From NCBI GenBank assembly GCA_033763735.1, contig JANRJY010000006.1:11477-75476 (forward strand): DNA of 64,000 nucleotides, given 5' to 3'. This document shows positions 17,284 to 43,496 of this stretch, one piece after another. Source of the stretch: Bacteroidota bacterium. Lineage in GTDB: Bacteria > Bacteroidota > Bacteroidia > Cytophagales > UBA9547. The notes under the pieces were generated by a model that had not been told where the DNA came from, did not search any database, and saw only the letters and a program-made list of their open reading frames with translations. Each line of letters starts with the position of its first letter. Position 1 is the stretch's first letter. A program made the position numbers and the translations under genes.

Positions 17284-19014
17284 ATGTTAAGCACTGAAGT
17301 ACAACAAAGAGTAGACAAATGGCTCACCGGTAATTATGACGATGCAACCAAAAATGAAATTAAAGCATTATTAAAGTCAAATAATGAGTTAGAACTCACT
17401 GATGCATTTTATAAAGAATTGGAATTTGGTACTGGAGGTCTGAGAGGTATTATGGGTGTTGGGACCAACAAAATGAATAAATACACCATTGGTGCAGCCA
17501 CTCAAGGAATTTTCAATTACCTACACAAATGTTTTCCAGGTAAGCAAATTAAAGTAGCCATTGCTCACGATAGTCGCAATAACAGTAGCTACTTTGCCCA
17601 AATAACCGCAGAAGTTTTCTCAGCAAATGGTGCTAAAGTGTATCTTTTTGACGCACTTCGTCCAACACCTGAACTTTCATTTGCCATTCGTCATTTTGGA
17701 TGTCATTCAGGAGTAGTTATTACAGCCTCTCATAATCCTAAAGAATACAACGGATACAAAGCTTATTTCAATGATGGTGCCCAAATGGTATCACCACACG
17801 ACAGCAATACCATTGATGAAGTCAGAAAAATTATTGATTTATCTGAAATTAAGTTTGATAGAATTGAATCAAACATTCAAAAAATAAGTACTGAAGTTGA
17901 TAACTTATATATTCAAAAAACTGCTTCTTTGTCTTTAGCAAAAGAAGCTATTGCACGTCAAAAAAACCTAAAAATTATTTACACACCTTTGCATGGAACC
18001 GGTATAACTCTTGTACCTCAGTTATTGCACCAATTCGGATTTGAAAACGTAAACATTGTACAAGAACAGGCAATTCCAGATGGCAACTTCCCAACTACAC
18101 CATCCCCAAATCCTGAAGAACGTGAGGCACTTAGCATGGCAATGGAATATGCCAAAAGAATAGATGCTGACCTTGTGCTGGCAACAGATCCGGATGCAGA
18201 TAGGGTGGGCATTGCAGTGAAAGACAACAAAAATCAATGGGTGCTTTTAAATGGAAATCAAACCGGCTCATTATTAATTAATTATATGCTTAATGCATGG
18301 AAATTAGCTGGCAAGCTTGATGGTAAACAATTTATTGTAAAAACTATTGTTAGCAGTTATTTGATGGATGCTATTGCCAAAAACTATCAGGTAAATTGTT
18401 ACAATGTACTTACCGGATTCAAATATATAGCCGAGTTAATTAAAGCCAAAGAAGGTAAGGAAACATTTATATGTGGAGGAGAAGAAAGTTATGGTTATTT
18501 GGTTGGTGATTTTTGCAGAGATAAAGATGCCGTGGGTGCTTGTGCGTTTATTTCTGAAATGGCGGCTTATGCAAAAGACCAAGGCACCAGCCTTTGGGAT
18601 TATTTAATGGAAATGTATGTAAAATATGGTCTTTACAAAGAGAAATTAAAATCAATTACCAAAAAAGGAAAAGCAGGTCAAGAAGAAATAAAAGAAATGA
18701 TGGTTAAATTCAGAAATAACCCTCCTAAAACATTGGCAGGTGCTCCCGTTATTAAATTAATGGATTACGAAATGCAACAGGAAACCGATTTAAAAACGGG
18801 TGTACAATCATTTATTAATTTACCCAAATCAGATGTACTTCAATTTTTAACCGCTGACGGCACACTGGTGTCAGCACGACCATCCGGAACGGAACCAAAA
18901 ATCAAATTTTACTTCTCTGTAAATGCACCTCTATCGTCAAAAGGTGACTTCGATATAGTTGACAAACAATTAGATGGAAAAATTGAATTGATAATCAAGG
19001 AATTAGGAATATAA
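17284..19014 (+). CDS. Phospho-sugar mutase, phosphoglucomutase/phosphomannomutase type (576 aa)
   Basis: Active-site TASHNPKEYNGYK, metal loop DPDADR, GEESYG, C-terminal [12 protein letters not shown] loop. Its last 174 nt are duplicated at 43323-43496. Confidence 0.85.
   Translation: MLSTEVQQRVDKWLTGNYDDATKNEIKALLKSNNELELTDAFYKELEFGTGGLRGIMGVGTNKMNKYTIGAATQGIFNYLHKCFPGKQIKVAIAHDSRNNSSYFAQITAEVFSANGAKVYLFDALRPTPELSFAIRHFGCHSGVVITASHNPKEYNGYKAYFNDGAQMVSPHDSNTIDEVRKIIDLSEIKFDRIESNIQKISTEVDNLYIQKTASLSLAKEAIARQKNLKIIYTPLHGTGITLVPQLLHQFGFENVNIVQEQAIPDGNFPTTPSPNPEEREALSMAMEYAKRIDADLVLATDPDADRVGIAVKDNKNQWVLLNGNQTGSLLINYMLNAWKLAGKLDGKQFIVKTIVSSYLMDAIAKNYQVNCYNVLTGFKYIAELIKAKEGKETFICGGEESYGYLVGDFCRDKDAVGACAFISEMAAYAKDQGTSLWDYLMEMYVKYGLYKEKLKSITKKGKAGQEEIKEMMVKFRNNPPKTLAGAPVIKLMDYEMQQETDLKTGVQSFINLPKSDVLQFLTADGTLVSARPSGTEPKIKFYFSVNAPLSSKGDFDIVDKQLDGKIELIIKELGI
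18841..19014 (+). repeat. Direct repeat, left copy (functional 3' end of the mutase gene; candidate attL)
   Basis: Base-by-base comparison with 43323-43496 gives 5 mismatches and no indels in 174 nt. Confidence 0.95.
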
Positions 19015-19039
19015 ATTTATAAATTTCTTATAGTTTTTT

Positions 19040-20110
19040 TTAATTTACCAATTTGAAAATAATATAATATCCAATTGCTCCAGATAAATTTATAGCTTCA
19101 CAAAAAATCACACCAGAGTGAGAAACTTTCATCACCTTTGTAATTTTTGATAATGGTAGTTTTGTAGATTTAAGTAATTCGTTTAATAGGAATACTTTTT
19201 TGTTTGAATAGATAAATGGTTCGTTAAACTTAGAACCAATTACAAATTCATAGTTAACAGAAGTAAGATAAGAAGGGACATCAGGAAAAAGATCAGTCCA
19301 CACTGGGAACTCTGCCCCTTTTGGTTGACTTTTTAAATCAAAAACAAATACTCCTGGAACTTGTGTCATAGAATTAAACCAGTTCCCCAACACTTGGTTT
19401 TGAGCGTTTATACCAATTATTTGTCCTTCTGTGTTACCGATGACTTTAAATGCTTTATTTTTATATCCAATTACAGGTACTTGTTTACTTTTTTTGTTAA
19501 AAGTTGTACCATAACTTAGTAGCTTATAATCAATATGTATCCACTCGATTTTATCATCAAATCGTTTATTAAATTCTATTTTAGTTATTTTATTATCGCT
19601 TAATTCTAAAGAAAAATTAACATCTTTTTTTTCAATATAAATATTTATTGAACCATTAGCAACCCCTACAATTTTAGCATTTTTTAAACTGTCAGGTACG
19701 ATCAAATTAATGGGATTGGATTTTAATGTATTTAAATCAATTTTGTAAATTTTTGAATTTGAAAATGTAAAAAACGTATTTGGTGTGGAATGAATTAAGT
19801 AAAAAGAATCCGACATAAATGTTAATATTGACTCTTTTTGGAATTCTGCTATATTAAAAAATCTACTTTTTTTTATTTCAAAAAGTATCAATATACTTTT
19901 TGTAAAATCCTTTTGCGAATTGCAAGTACAAAATAAATGGTCATTAGAAAAATATAAAGGTTTTAGGGGCTTTATGCAATCAATTTGAGAAATAATTAGT
20001 TTGGCATCAACATCAATAATATGTTGTGAATTAACTTGAAGAATACAAAATAAGGAGTTTAAAAGTATAATTTTGTGAATACAATCTATTTTAAAGCCTA
20101 TAAAATACAA
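19040..20110 (-). CDS. Hypothetical protein, last gene of the island operon
   Basis: 356-codon ORF. The N-terminus resembles a signal peptide (IHKIILLNSLFCILQVNSQ). The drawn start is TTG and there is no in-frame ATG until about codon 98, so the start is uncertain. No motif recognised. Confidence 0.5.
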   Translation of the reverse strand: MYFIGFKIDCIHKIILLNSLFCILQVNSQHIIDVDAKLIISQIDCIKPLKPLYFSNDHLFCTCNSQKDFTKSILILFEIKKSRFFNIAEFQKESILTFMSDSFYLIHSTPNTFFTFSNSKIYKIDLNTLKSNPINLIVPDSLKNAKIVGVANGSINIYIEKKDVNFSLELSDNKITKIEFNKRFDDKIEWIHIDYKLLSYGTTFNKKSKQVPVIGYKNKAFKVIGNTEGQIIGINAQNQVLGNWFNSMTQVPGVFVFDLKSQPKGAEFPVWTDLFPDVPSYLTSVNYEFVIGSKFNEPFIYSNKKVFLLNELLKSTKLPLSKITKVMKVSHSGVIFCEAINLSGAIGYYIIFKLVN

Positions 20111-20211
20111 TCGTTTTCTTATTTAATATTGATTTAACTATGAAAATTGTGTATACTCCCAACATTTTTTGATGTTACAGTTTAGCAACTCAAATATATG
20201 CATCGTGATAT

Positions 20212-43052: not shown

Positions 43053-43076
43053 ATTTTAATTTTAGATGGGTTCTAT

Positions 43077-43107
43077 CAAATGTAATAAATTAGATTTTAA
43101 AATACAA
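43077..43107 (-). promoter_or_regulatory. Candidate Bacteroidota sigma-A-type promoter for the island operon
   Basis: The minus strand reads TTG (43107-43105), a 20-nt spacer, then TACATTTG (43084-43077, TAnnTTTG form), 25 nt upstream of the ATG at 43052. This is a pattern match in AT-rich DNA only. Confidence 0.3.
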
Positions 43108-43295
43108 TTATTTGACAAATACATTTAAACAAGCCCCGAATACCTCGTTAATTTTTCATTAATTAATGTAATAAATTTGTGTGCATTAATAAATTAATTC
43201 ACTATTAAAATTTGTATAATTTCTAATTATAAGTTTAAGAATTCATATTAATAAAATATGATTTTGAAAATAACTTTGCGAAAATTACATATTAA

Positions 43296-43496
43296 TTCAA
43301 CTTTCCAAAATCTGATGTTTTGCAATATTTAACCGCTGACGGCACACTGGTGTCAGCACGACCATCCGGAACGGAACCAAAAATCAAATTTTACTTCTCT
43401 GTAAATGCACCTCTACCGTCAAAAGGTGACTTCGATATTGTTGACAAACAATTAGATGGAAAAATTGAATTGATAATCAAGGAATTAGGAATTTAG
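43296..43496 (+). pseudogene. Orphan 3' fragment of a phosphoglucomutase-type gene (candidate attR)
   Basis: In frame it reads [66 protein letters not shown]. There is no start codon and an in-frame TAA at 43293-43295. It is followed by a strong terminator. Confidence 0.9.
43323..43496 (+). repeat. Direct repeat, right copy
   Basis: 169/174 identical to 18841-19014 at a constant offset of 24482 nt. Confidence 0.95.

Follow-up and report, generated by a model that had tools for sequence, protein, structure and literature searches.

A four-gene operon for giant T9SS surface proteins inserted in the tail of a phosphoglucomutase gene in an uncultured Bacteroidota bacterium

Results

The 64-kb stretch of DNA analysed here (the window) comes from a singleton MAG, represented by one contig and one protein-cluster member. 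Its working phosphoglucomutase/phospho-sugar mutase gene, pgm (17284..19014, plus strand), encodes 576 aa in which all four PGM_PMM domains were found, and the protein is 100% identical to the NCBI MAG protein. The gene order of the left flank, miaB-methyltransferase-pgm, is kept in the relatives L002, L003 and L020. Hence, pgm lies at its ancestral position, and the new material is therefore to the right of it. On the right flank, a minus-strand gene (43573..44601) encodes a fusion of a fructose-6-phosphate aldolase/transaldolase domain with a CBS pair, as judged by Pfam and NCBIfam matches. In between, we found the 24,308-bp block described in an earlier note on this DNA, with its four minus-strand ORFs separated by 15, 5 and 101 nt.

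The first gene of the block (41976..43052, minus strand) encodes a 358-aa secreted right-handed beta-helix protein, whose family is widespread in Bacteroidota (30-36% identity). Its AlphaFold model (pLDDT 75.8, pTM 0.78) is predicted to resemble PL6 alginate lyases and pectin methylesterases most closely in fold. The second gene (29883..41960, minus strand) codes for a secreted giant of 4025 aa with a type-A T9SS sorting domain, as assigned by Pfam and NCBIfam domain matches. It contains N-terminal 'EYFFD..DPGVG' repeat modules and PKD, CARDB and Ig-like domains. The N-terminal 460 aa and the PKD region of this giant are homologous (E = 1e-20) to a protein of ~500 aa, also of the PKD/T9SS type, whose gene comes after the beta-helix gene in other Bacteroidota. 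There, the pair is found in housekeeping contexts. The first two genes are an expanded version of a gene pair present in ordinary chromosomal contexts across the phylum, and the cargo of the block is ordinary Bacteroidota chromosomal gene content.

The third gene (20212..29877, minus strand) encodes a second secreted giant, of 3221 aa, with an N-terminal signal peptide and a type-A T9SS C-terminal sorting domain (Pfam, NCBIfam). This protein has a weak alpha/beta-hydrolase (DUF900/lipase-3-like) segment and no relative among solved structures. PF18962 matches the C-terminus of both giants above its curated cut-off (31.8 and 39.8 bits vs 27), and TIGR04183 scores above its cut-off in the 4025-aa giant and below it in the 3221-aa giant (20.6 vs 23). 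Both giants thus combine the type-A sorting domain and the signal-peptide-like N-terminus of T9SS cargo. The last gene (19040..20110, minus strand) encodes a 356-aa ORFan with no Pfam, NCBIfam or PHROG match. It found only itself among 5.8 billion proteins, and an exhaustive representative search added one weak match (E = 5.6e-5). The source record annotates this ORF with a later start (283 aa), so that the last gap of the operon, of 101 nt, would widen. Essentially no paralogy was detected among the four island proteins or with the other giants of the window.

The block is bracketed by a duplication of the pgm tail. The last 174 nt of the working gene (copy A, 18841..19014, plus strand) and the displaced tail (copy B, 43323..43496, plus strand) share 169/174 identities with no indels, as the earlier note had reported, and every coordinate given in that note checks out. 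The mismatches fall at repeat positions 5, 94, 117, 171 and 174, leaving a longest perfect stretch of 88 nt. In copy B they amount to an F to Y and an S to P change, two synonymous Ile codons, and TAG instead of TAA as the stop codon; the Y occupies a position where 58/59 family members have F. Alignment and translation also bear out that copy B is in frame, retains a stop codon and lacks the 5' part of the gene, with a stop codon directly upstream. This pair is the sole long dispersed repeat of the window (family D3, 18817-19023 vs 43299-43505, 93% over 207 nt).

The two tails differ in what follows them. The strong bidirectional terminator previously placed after copy B was recovered at 43519..43547 by terminator scan and folding on both strands (z = -4.6 and -4.85), and is common to the displaced tail and the convergent aldolase-CBS gene. 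Neither terminator scan nor folding detected a terminator after copy A. The working pgm has therefore a second tail without a terminator, and the original tail lies 24.5 kb downstream together with its terminator, in both respects as proposed. The spacer that separates the stop codon of pgm from that of the last island gene (19015..19039) has the expected length of 25 nt and forms no stable hairpin. At the other end, an AT-rich leader of 243 nt (43053..43295) forms the right-hand end of the inserted DNA and is the likely promoter region of the operon. It contains no ORF, Rfam match or pgm similarity. On its minus strand, 24 nt before the ATG of the beta-helix gene, it carries TAcaTTTG (43084-43077), a match to the Bacteroidetes -7 box consensus TAnnTTTG. 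These data reveal a real insertion into the pgm tail: a four-gene operon of T9SS surface proteins sits inside the resident pgm, within its final ~200 nt.

In one respect the earlier description had to be corrected. Copy B is homologous to pgm from 43296 onwards, and not just from 43323, as an anchored identity test added 27 nt of more divergent pgm-derived codons (43296..43322, plus strand; FNFPKSDVL), which form the 5' end of the displaced remnant. Their counterparts are the resident codons 511-519 (18814..18840, plus strand; INLPKSDVL). The two stretches are identical at 18/27 nt, third codon positions account for 7/9 differences, and the 84 nt that follow are 83/84 identical to pgm. Just 13 of the 127,946 27-mers of the window reach at least 18/27 nt identity to these pgm codons, and the 7/9 amino acid match level is reached only by the 27-nt piece and pgm itself. 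Mismatch density is 9/27 in this piece vs 5/174 in the repeat (Fisher p = 4.9e-6). The anchored test was significant, and identity falls to chance level beyond 43296, where unrelated DNA and a stop codon precede the 5'-truncated tail; an unanchored local alignment detected no significant remnant homology further upstream.

The 27-nt piece is as distant from the resident pgm as the pgm genes of other genera are (16-21/27). It is real homology, derived from a pgm diverged to synonymous saturation, and was shaped by purifying selection in another lineage. Resident pgm and remnant also have in common Asn512, which is rare in the family (1-2 of ~60). Because 18/27 nt, a divergence typical of other genera, stands beside 83/84 over the next 84 nt, the remnant is a mosaic of two pgm lineages with a sharp breakpoint at ~18840/43322. 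Of its 201 nt, the first 27-32 nt stem from a pgm of other-genus divergence, and over the other 169-174 nt the identity with the working tail is at least 97%. The breakpoints are 18840-18845/43322-43327 and the stop codon.

The absence of integrase, transposase, phage and conjugation genes from the block, already noticed before, holds for the whole 64 kb. Pfam, NCBIfam and PHROG yielded no recombinase in the four island ORFs, and the window contains no phage, conjugation or mobilisation genes and no ICE/IME genes or remnants. Neither an integrase, an integrase pseudogene nor a spare ORF of at least 20 aa was found at the block ends. Indeed, there is no space for an integrase there, since one side offers only 25 nt and the other only the non-coding leader of 243 nt together with the 27-nt piece. 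Searches of the block for hidden genes, RNAs and terminal inverted repeats were negative, the longest inverted match between its ends being 10 nt. As for Tn7-like hallmarks, profile scans revealed no transposase domains in the window ORFs, and no dif-like site (Xer/dif-type, IMEX) was seen by eye. Comparisons of the codon and tetranucleotide usage of the block with that of the flanks gave no sign of foreign origin. RSCU correlations were 0.98 between the island and the other T9SS giants outside the block, 0.93 between the island and housekeeping genes, and 0.94 between those other giants and housekeeping genes; tetranucleotide correlations were 0.67 for island-flank and 0.72 for flank-flank comparisons.

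Using the pgm protein as a query, no empty pgm-terminator-aldolase site and no aldolase-CBS gene beside pgm were found in GTDB species genomes or JGI metagenomes, where the closest pgm is 73-74% identical. A search of 5.8 billion proteins with pgm returned the source MAG at 100% and the next match at 76%, and the downstream context of the 76% relatives is unrelated. The failure to find an empty site is explained by this isolation, since the MAG is a singleton and no pgm closer than 76% is available for comparison. Exact-protein look-ups with pgm, aldolase-CBS and P0001 returned no contig on record. Relatives show no second pgm tail within 10 kb, and the block itself is absent from their pgm neighbourhoods.

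We also looked for the pgm tail as an attachment site elsewhere, and no pgm-tail attP or element bearing a pgm tail was found in IMG/VR, phage and plasmid collections. In one IMG/VR contig (L029), pgm homology stops at residue 511, exactly where the remnant has its 5' end. Past the junction, the reading frame continues into a portal gene, of which only the C-terminal half is present, and GC drops abruptly from 0.44 to 0.32. This contig looks chimeric or like a decayed prophage and was rejected as a clean att site. Matches in S. suis phage records were discarded as full-length flanking pgmA genes, and those in faecal virome scaffolds as unverified records that look like bacterial contamination. 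Plasmid matches are mostly annotated phospho-sugar mutase genes on large replicons.

Discussion

The anatomy of this locus is closest to that of e14 (and phage 21) in the 3' end of icd. In both cases, an element lies within the end of a housekeeping gene (the last 165 nt in icd), the working gene ends in the element-side tail, and a 5'-truncated, in-frame and nearly identical copy, icdC, is left at the far end. Moreover, as in e14-type insertions, direct repeats of the gene 3' end bracket the block (169/174, in frame), and the displaced copy keeps the original downstream context. In E. coli K-12 we measured 153/165 identities between icd and icdC, with 12 mismatches (10 synonymous, 2 conservative), so that the e14 tails are 93% alike and those of the block 97%. 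Loss of e14 recombines icd with its displaced tail (PMC13626634). On the other hand, e14 carries intE, xisE and phage genes, whereas the block has no mobility gene, and no tyrosine or serine recombinase gene adjoins the putative att site. Upstream of the repeat, e14 shows no similarity, whereas the block has 27 nt of divergent pgm-derived codons. The cargo differs too, being here one operon of T9SS-secreted giants.

Elements reduced to cargo are known. CIMEs keep their att sites after the loss of all recombination genes, and integration into the 3' ends of protein genes has been described (PMC7563491). As with the CIMEs and ICESt-type elements that streptococci carry at the 3' ends of fda, rpsI, rpmG and rplL, direct repeats bound the block where a protein gene ends. 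CIMEs contain cargo only, all their recombination and conjugation genes being lost (PMC7563491); the block has no mobility genes either, and its repeats are candidate att sites. However, CIMEs are identified through an ICE or IME of matching specificity to which they are related or with which they have accreted in tandem, and no such partner, remnant or pgm-specific element was found in the window or in IMG/VR, phage and plasmid collections; streptococcal att repeats measure tens of bp instead of 174, and the phylum is different. Tn7-type insertions at the 3' end of glmS are similar in that the insert starts within ~25 nt of the stop of a sugar-metabolism gene that stays intact. Tn7-like elements carry tnsABC and a target selector, have structured ends and produce a 5-bp duplication, with no duplication of the gene tail. 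In contrast, the block shows no tnsABC or TniQ, no structured ends or terminal repeats, and no 5-bp duplication.

The earlier note had interpreted the locus as an attL/attR footprint. The layout supports this view, as it matches e14/icd/icdC, but a single clean exchange cannot explain the displaced tail because the tail is mosaic, and there is no integrase. A single site-specific exchange predicts a uniform divergence between the pgm of the element and that of the host, and the identity switches instead from 67% to 97%. An att-type reading is thus plausible but unproven. The explanation that we favour, with a probability of about 0.4, combines an att-type exchange, a leftover of a former host, a recombinase that was lost or acts in trans, and a later exchange between tails. 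The block would have entered as e14 did in icd or ICESt elements in fda, and pgm would have stayed intact because a 3' fragment of pgm came along with the incoming DNA. The 27-nt piece would be what is left of the pgm of the former host on the element arm. The recombinase would since have disappeared or would act from elsewhere in the genome, a CIME-like state, and the near identity of the two tails would go back to one or more later exchanges, either with each other or with a conspecific allele.

This explanation is consistent with the repeat and its polarity (terminator after copy B only), the kept left flank, the divergent 27-nt homology, the relatives without block or second tail, the e14 anatomy and the documented att elements without recombination genes. 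It is at odds with the lack of an integrase and of room for one, the lack of mobility genes, the native composition, the housekeeping context of the gene pair and the lack of a pgm-tail attP. The sole cis-encoded route of loss today would be RecA recombination between the 174-nt repeats, with their 88-nt perfect stretch. Such an event would delete the four genes and restore pgm-terminator-aldolase at the cost of at most two amino-acid changes.

The best-surviving alternative, although unlikely, dispenses with a recombinase. A donor operon already abutting a pgm tail would have arrived by transformation or another route, and homology-facilitated illegitimate recombination or template switching would have made the join. 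The pgm-like end of the donor would have paired with codons 511-519, the join running into the resident tail, and the other end would have been joined just past the pgm stop, thereby duplicating the resident tail; the five differences would have arisen later. The ends of the high-identity block indeed resemble junctions and not the ends of conversion tracts, usable flanking homology is missing past the stop codon and amounts to 67% over 27 nt on the other side, and the block is native-like in composition and free of mobility genes and debris. The Y of copy B, where 58/59 family members have F, is expected of a decaying copy, and mosaic products of single transformation events are documented (PMC13344027). 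Nevertheless, duplications of ~174 nt are not usual for homology-facilitated illegitimate recombination, and the final 4 nt of the repeat contain two of its five mismatches, which is unlikely (~0.002-0.01, a post hoc estimate) if the copies were identical at the start. A donor that already had the operon beside a truncated pgm tail is still needed, which only moves the question of how this architecture arose back by one step.

A broader version, which we consider quite unlikely, sees in the block an island that moves between genera guided by homology, without a recombinase. It would enter by Campbell-type or homology-facilitated recombination, travel between genera because it has a fragment of the conserved pgm tail aboard, and leave through RecA exchange between the duplicated tails. 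If so, the 27-nt piece would be the record of a previous host, and the arrangement would allow a population to switch giant T9SS surface proteins on and off without leaving a scar.

It is rather improbable that the divergence arose on the resident side. The 201-nt tail would then have been duplicated by any mechanism, the working pgm upstream of about -174 being later replaced by the allele of a diverged relative, and the 27-nt piece would be the old resident allele instead of foreign DNA. Core genes commonly undergo allelic replacement, the differences are nearly all synonymous, like those between alleles of a functional gene, and the rare Asn512 (1-2 of ~60) is present in both resident and remnant. 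However, the 27-32 nt differ by ~31%, a family-level divergence far beyond the normal tolerance of RecA-dependent exchange, and the mismatch cluster at the stop codon is left unexplained.

We regard as very improbable that no mobile element was involved. In that case, native surface-protein genes would once have lain between two pgm paralogs or xenologs, of which the right-hand one would have lost 1.5 kb from its 5' end, and the tails would have become alike through partial gene conversion. The model for this scenario is E. coli manB/cpsG, where phosphohexomutase-derived direct repeats also bracket ~23 kb of surface-structure genes. Homologous recombination between these phosphomannomutase paralogs deletes the ~23 kb between them and yields a gene that is chimeric but functional (PMC13626634). 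Native-like composition and gene content would fit, and some Cytophagales hold two pgm genes, such as Rhodocytophaga rosea (P0112, P0115), but these are not neighbours. In addition, manB and cpsG are both full-length functional paralogs, whereas the second copy is here a 201-nt remnant followed by the terminator of the first gene. A terminator at the remnant and none at the working pgm better fits a displaced tail than a decayed second gene. The high-identity block also reaches to within 4 nt of the homology end, with no flank to resolve a conversion tract; models based on gene conversion only were rated low because the identical block leaves almost no 3' flanking homology. Finally, an assembly artefact, that is, a contig chimeric between strains or species and joined via the common tail, is highly improbable: the MAG has a single contig and protein-cluster member and the repeat an 88-nt perfect stretch, but the 243 nt of AT-rich non-pgm DNA and the stop codon that precede the remnant mean that it was truncated in whichever genome it came from, a mis-join inside the repeat still needs a pgm tail at each block end, and the five mismatches let an assembler tell the copies apart.

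The mosaic tail illustrates how a few codons past the obvious repeat can expose a recombination history that the repeat alone hides. Were the locus only a rearrangement that became fixed long ago, seen in one MAG, it would be ordinary. If the att-type or the homology-guided reading is right, it would be the first described pgm-tail insertion site in Cytophagales-like Bacteroidota. Giant T9SS surface proteins would then move as a self-contained cassette whose loss leaves the host gene undamaged, which would bear on the turnover of surface-protein repertoires among uncultured Bacteroidota.

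Results

The 24,308-bp block is a real, cleanly delimited insertion into the tail of pgm, the working phosphoglucomutase gene (17284-19014, plus strand). Pairwise alignment of the last 174 nt of this gene (copy A, 18841-19014) with the displaced tail (copy B, 43323-43496) gave 169/174 identical positions without gaps, which bears out the duplication that an earlier note had reported from the sequence; its coordinates for pgm, the spacer, the four-ORF interval and the terminator also hold. The mismatches lie at repeat positions 5, 94, 117, 171 and 174, and the longest stretch free of mismatches measures 88 nt. 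Relative to copy A, copy B changes F to Y and S to P in the pgm frame, alters two Ile codons silently and replaces TAA by TAG; its five variant codons read TAT, CCG, ATT, ATT and TAG. Tandem repeats within other giant genes aside, this pair is the sole long repeat in the window. The end of pgm is 25 nt from the end of the next ORF, and the block holds four minus-strand ORFs (356, 3221, 4025 and 358 aa) with gaps of 101, 5 and 15 nt. Both tail copies contain the inverted repeat GCTGAC-11 nt-GTCAGC (18852-18874 and 43334-43356), just past the breakpoint; its layout is that of a recombinase core site, but about 0.4 such matches are expected by chance per 200 nt.

The recombination scar at pgm is more informative than first reported. 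The displaced tail had been limited to 174 nt; it is longer, a 201-nt mosaic (43296-43496) in which a 27-nt piece is joined, at about 43322-43327, to a near-resident tail. Translation in the pgm frame 5' of copy B gives a 13-residue stretch whose pgm counterpart is SFINLPKSDVLQF. Over nine codons, 43296-43322 matches 18814-18840 at 18/27 nt; of the nine mismatches, seven are in the third position of a codon. When the register was set beforehand, just 13 of the 127,946 27-mers of the window reach this identity, and pgm and the 43296-43322 site are alone among them in reaching 7/9 amino acids. Further 5' than 43296, local and anchored alignments to pgm gave identity at chance level. The resident 27 nt score 16-21/27 against 16 pgm genes of other genera, so the remnant's piece is as distant as another genus; over the next 84 nt those genes match 56-64 positions, and copy B 83. 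Mismatch density is 9/27 in the piece versus 5/174 in the repeat (Fisher p = 4.9e-6). Purifying selection within another pgm lineage shaped the piece. Relatives differ freely in the C-terminal 29 residues, which are the same in both copies except for the S/P change; shared recent ancestry, and not constraint, thus accounts for the 174-nt identity. A second phosphohexomutase, possibly GlmM, is encoded at the start of the window (138-1349) with all four PGM_PMM domains (the matched domain starts at model position 56). It is probably not the source of the 27-nt piece because, by eye, it lacks the LPKSDVLQF motif.

The left gene order miaB-methyltransferase-pgm is common to three relatives (L002, L003 and L020; pgm identity 70-76%), and the working pgm is therefore at its ancestral position. 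The block and a second pgm tail within 10 kb are absent from the relatives examined, so the insertion postdates the divergence from them. A terminator hairpin with a T-tract at 43519-47 gives a strong fold on either strand (z = -4.6 and -4.85); it is attached to copy B and also serves the convergent aldolase-CBS gene, and a terminator scan and folding found nothing terminator-like 3' of the working pgm copy. On the simplest reading, the earlier arrangement was pgm-terminator-aldolase, and the sequence from about 18841 to 43322 was placed within the pgm tail. The pgm of this singleton MAG is 100% identical to one NCBI record, the next best being 76%. Neither an empty site nor a second occupied site was found in GTDB species genomes, JGI metagenomes or the contexts of the 76% relatives. 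In the right flank, the gene in the 43573-45451 region encodes a fusion of a fructose-6-phosphate aldolase/transaldolase domain with a KpsF/GutQ-type CBS pair, and may substitute, unusually, for the arabinose-5-phosphate isomerase step; directly beside it lies a gene for a 278-aa DAHP_synth_1 family protein, a candidate KdsA.

As the earlier note had stated, integrase, transposase, phage and conjugation genes are absent, here across the whole 64 kb, as are defence-type genes; no tRNA and no Rfam match was found. The block ends carry no spare ORF and no terminal inverted repeat. The comparison of block and flanks that the note had proposed revealed nothing foreign in composition: the block and its flanks are not set apart by tetranucleotide signature, its codon usage correlates at 0.98 with that of two giant type IX secretion (T9SS) cargo genes outside it, and the departure from housekeeping codon usage is alike (0.93 for the block, 0.94 for the other giants). 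When a pgm-tail attachment site was sought in IMG/VR and in phage and plasmid collections, only host genes or unverified scaffolds matched. One IMG/VR contig, L029 (IMGVR_UViG_3300029417_000052, 1930-4893), carries a 55% identical Bacteroidota pgm whose homology stops at query residue 511, where the remnant starts. Across the junction the reading frame continues into the C-terminal half of a portal gene, beyond which lie protease-like and capsid genes, and GC drops from 0.44 to 0.32. Because of this in-frame, mid-portal junction and the GC jump, a chimeric contig or a decayed prophage is more likely than an attachment site. Another viral contig, the 38-kb L030 (IMGVR_UViG_2667527889_000006, 7210-11629), ends with a 43% identical pgm, and 1.4 kb upstream of this pgm lies the gene of a large serine recombinase, possibly a prophage boundary beside, not inside, pgm.

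The 4025-aa and 3221-aa proteins both have a signal peptide and a type-A T9SS sorting domain; the former contains PKD, CARDB and Ig-like domains, and the latter a weak DUF900/lipase-like segment. The 358-aa product of the first gene, preceded 24 nt before its ATG by a Bacteroidetes-type -7 box, belongs to a widespread Bacteroidota family and models as a right-handed beta-helix, with PL6 alginate lyases and pectin methylesterases as best structural neighbours. The last gene (356 aa) is an ORFan. In many Bacteroidota, a beta-helix gene followed by a ~500-aa PKD/T9SS-CTD gene forms a conserved pair between fumarase and a nucleotidyl-transferase gene (L023, 5188-7777; L024, L025 and L026). In the 4025-aa giant, the N-terminal repeat modules and the PKD region are homologous to this ~500-aa protein. 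The first two island genes (41976-43052 and 29883-41960) thus represent an ordinary chromosomal pair in inflated form, the second member having swollen from ~500 to 4025 aa by ~2,850 aa inserted after the N-terminal repeat modules and ahead of the PKD/CTD end.

A third giant gene (52177-64000, >3,609 aa) runs off the window end; it encodes a type-B CHU_C sorting domain, contains tandem repeats of 213 nt at 59802-61081 and is followed by a PorP/SprF gene; as it lies outside the block, the genome is rich in giant T9SS cargo beyond it. Elsewhere in the window, a PD-(D/E)XK_3 nuclease-family ORF (10313-10684) is bracketed by three 45-nt direct repeats (10263-10307, 10729-10773 and 10771-10815), and a ~77-nt repeat (4503-4579 and 4937-5012, 88-90% identical) lies upstream of a MazF/PemK toxin gene (5360-5692).

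Discussion

We place the block in a known class, that of islands with a duplicated gene 3' end on either side. The textbook analogue is prophage e14 of E. coli K-12, which contains the last 165 nt of icd; the far-end icdC pseudogene is 153/165 identical, with 10 silent and two conservative differences and no similarity further upstream. When e14 excises, icd recombines with icdC (PMC13626634). The block resembles this case in scale and layout but has nothing comparable to the e14 genes intE and xisE. The nearest named state is that of the streptococcal CIMEs, whose att sites in the 3' ends of fda, rpsI and rpmG persist after the loss of all recombination genes (PMC7563491), although CIMEs are defined by ICE/IME kinship or accretion, neither of which was found here. 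A non-mobile route to a similar picture exists in E. coli, where the phosphomannomutase paralogs manB and cpsG flank 23 kb deleted by homologous recombination (PMC13626634).

Both edges of the near-identical tract behave like junctions: identity falls to 67% at the 5' edge, and at the 3' edge homology does not extend past the stop codon, the final 4 nt holding two of the five mismatches. Gene conversion alone, acting between old and diverged tails, is unattractive because the tract has no flank on which it could be resolved. Nor is one clean site-specific exchange enough, since the divergence should then be equal to either side of the crossover. All models that we built need tail insertion plus at least one further exchange between diverged pgm sequences, or one mosaic recombination event.

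Our leading, still tentative reading (probability about 0.42) is that incoming DNA carrying its own pgm 3' fragment would have integrated att-fashion into the pgm tail, its recombinase being afterwards lost or acting in trans. The att-type island proposed earlier is a reasonable reading, but the integrase that defines such an element is missing. Insertion that needs no recombinase, facilitated by homology or template switching, is less likely. A later allelic replacement of the working pgm upstream of -174 we consider improbable. Slightly more doubtful still is a decayed pgm paralog, an origin that a second pgm matching TTCAACTTTCCAAAATCTGATGTTTTGCAATAT would support. An assembly artefact is very improbable.

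However the block arose, the 174-nt direct repeats, with their 88-nt perfect stretch, should offer ample substrate for RecA-dependent deletion. The operon would then be lost, and pgm would be left whole and followed by its native terminator.
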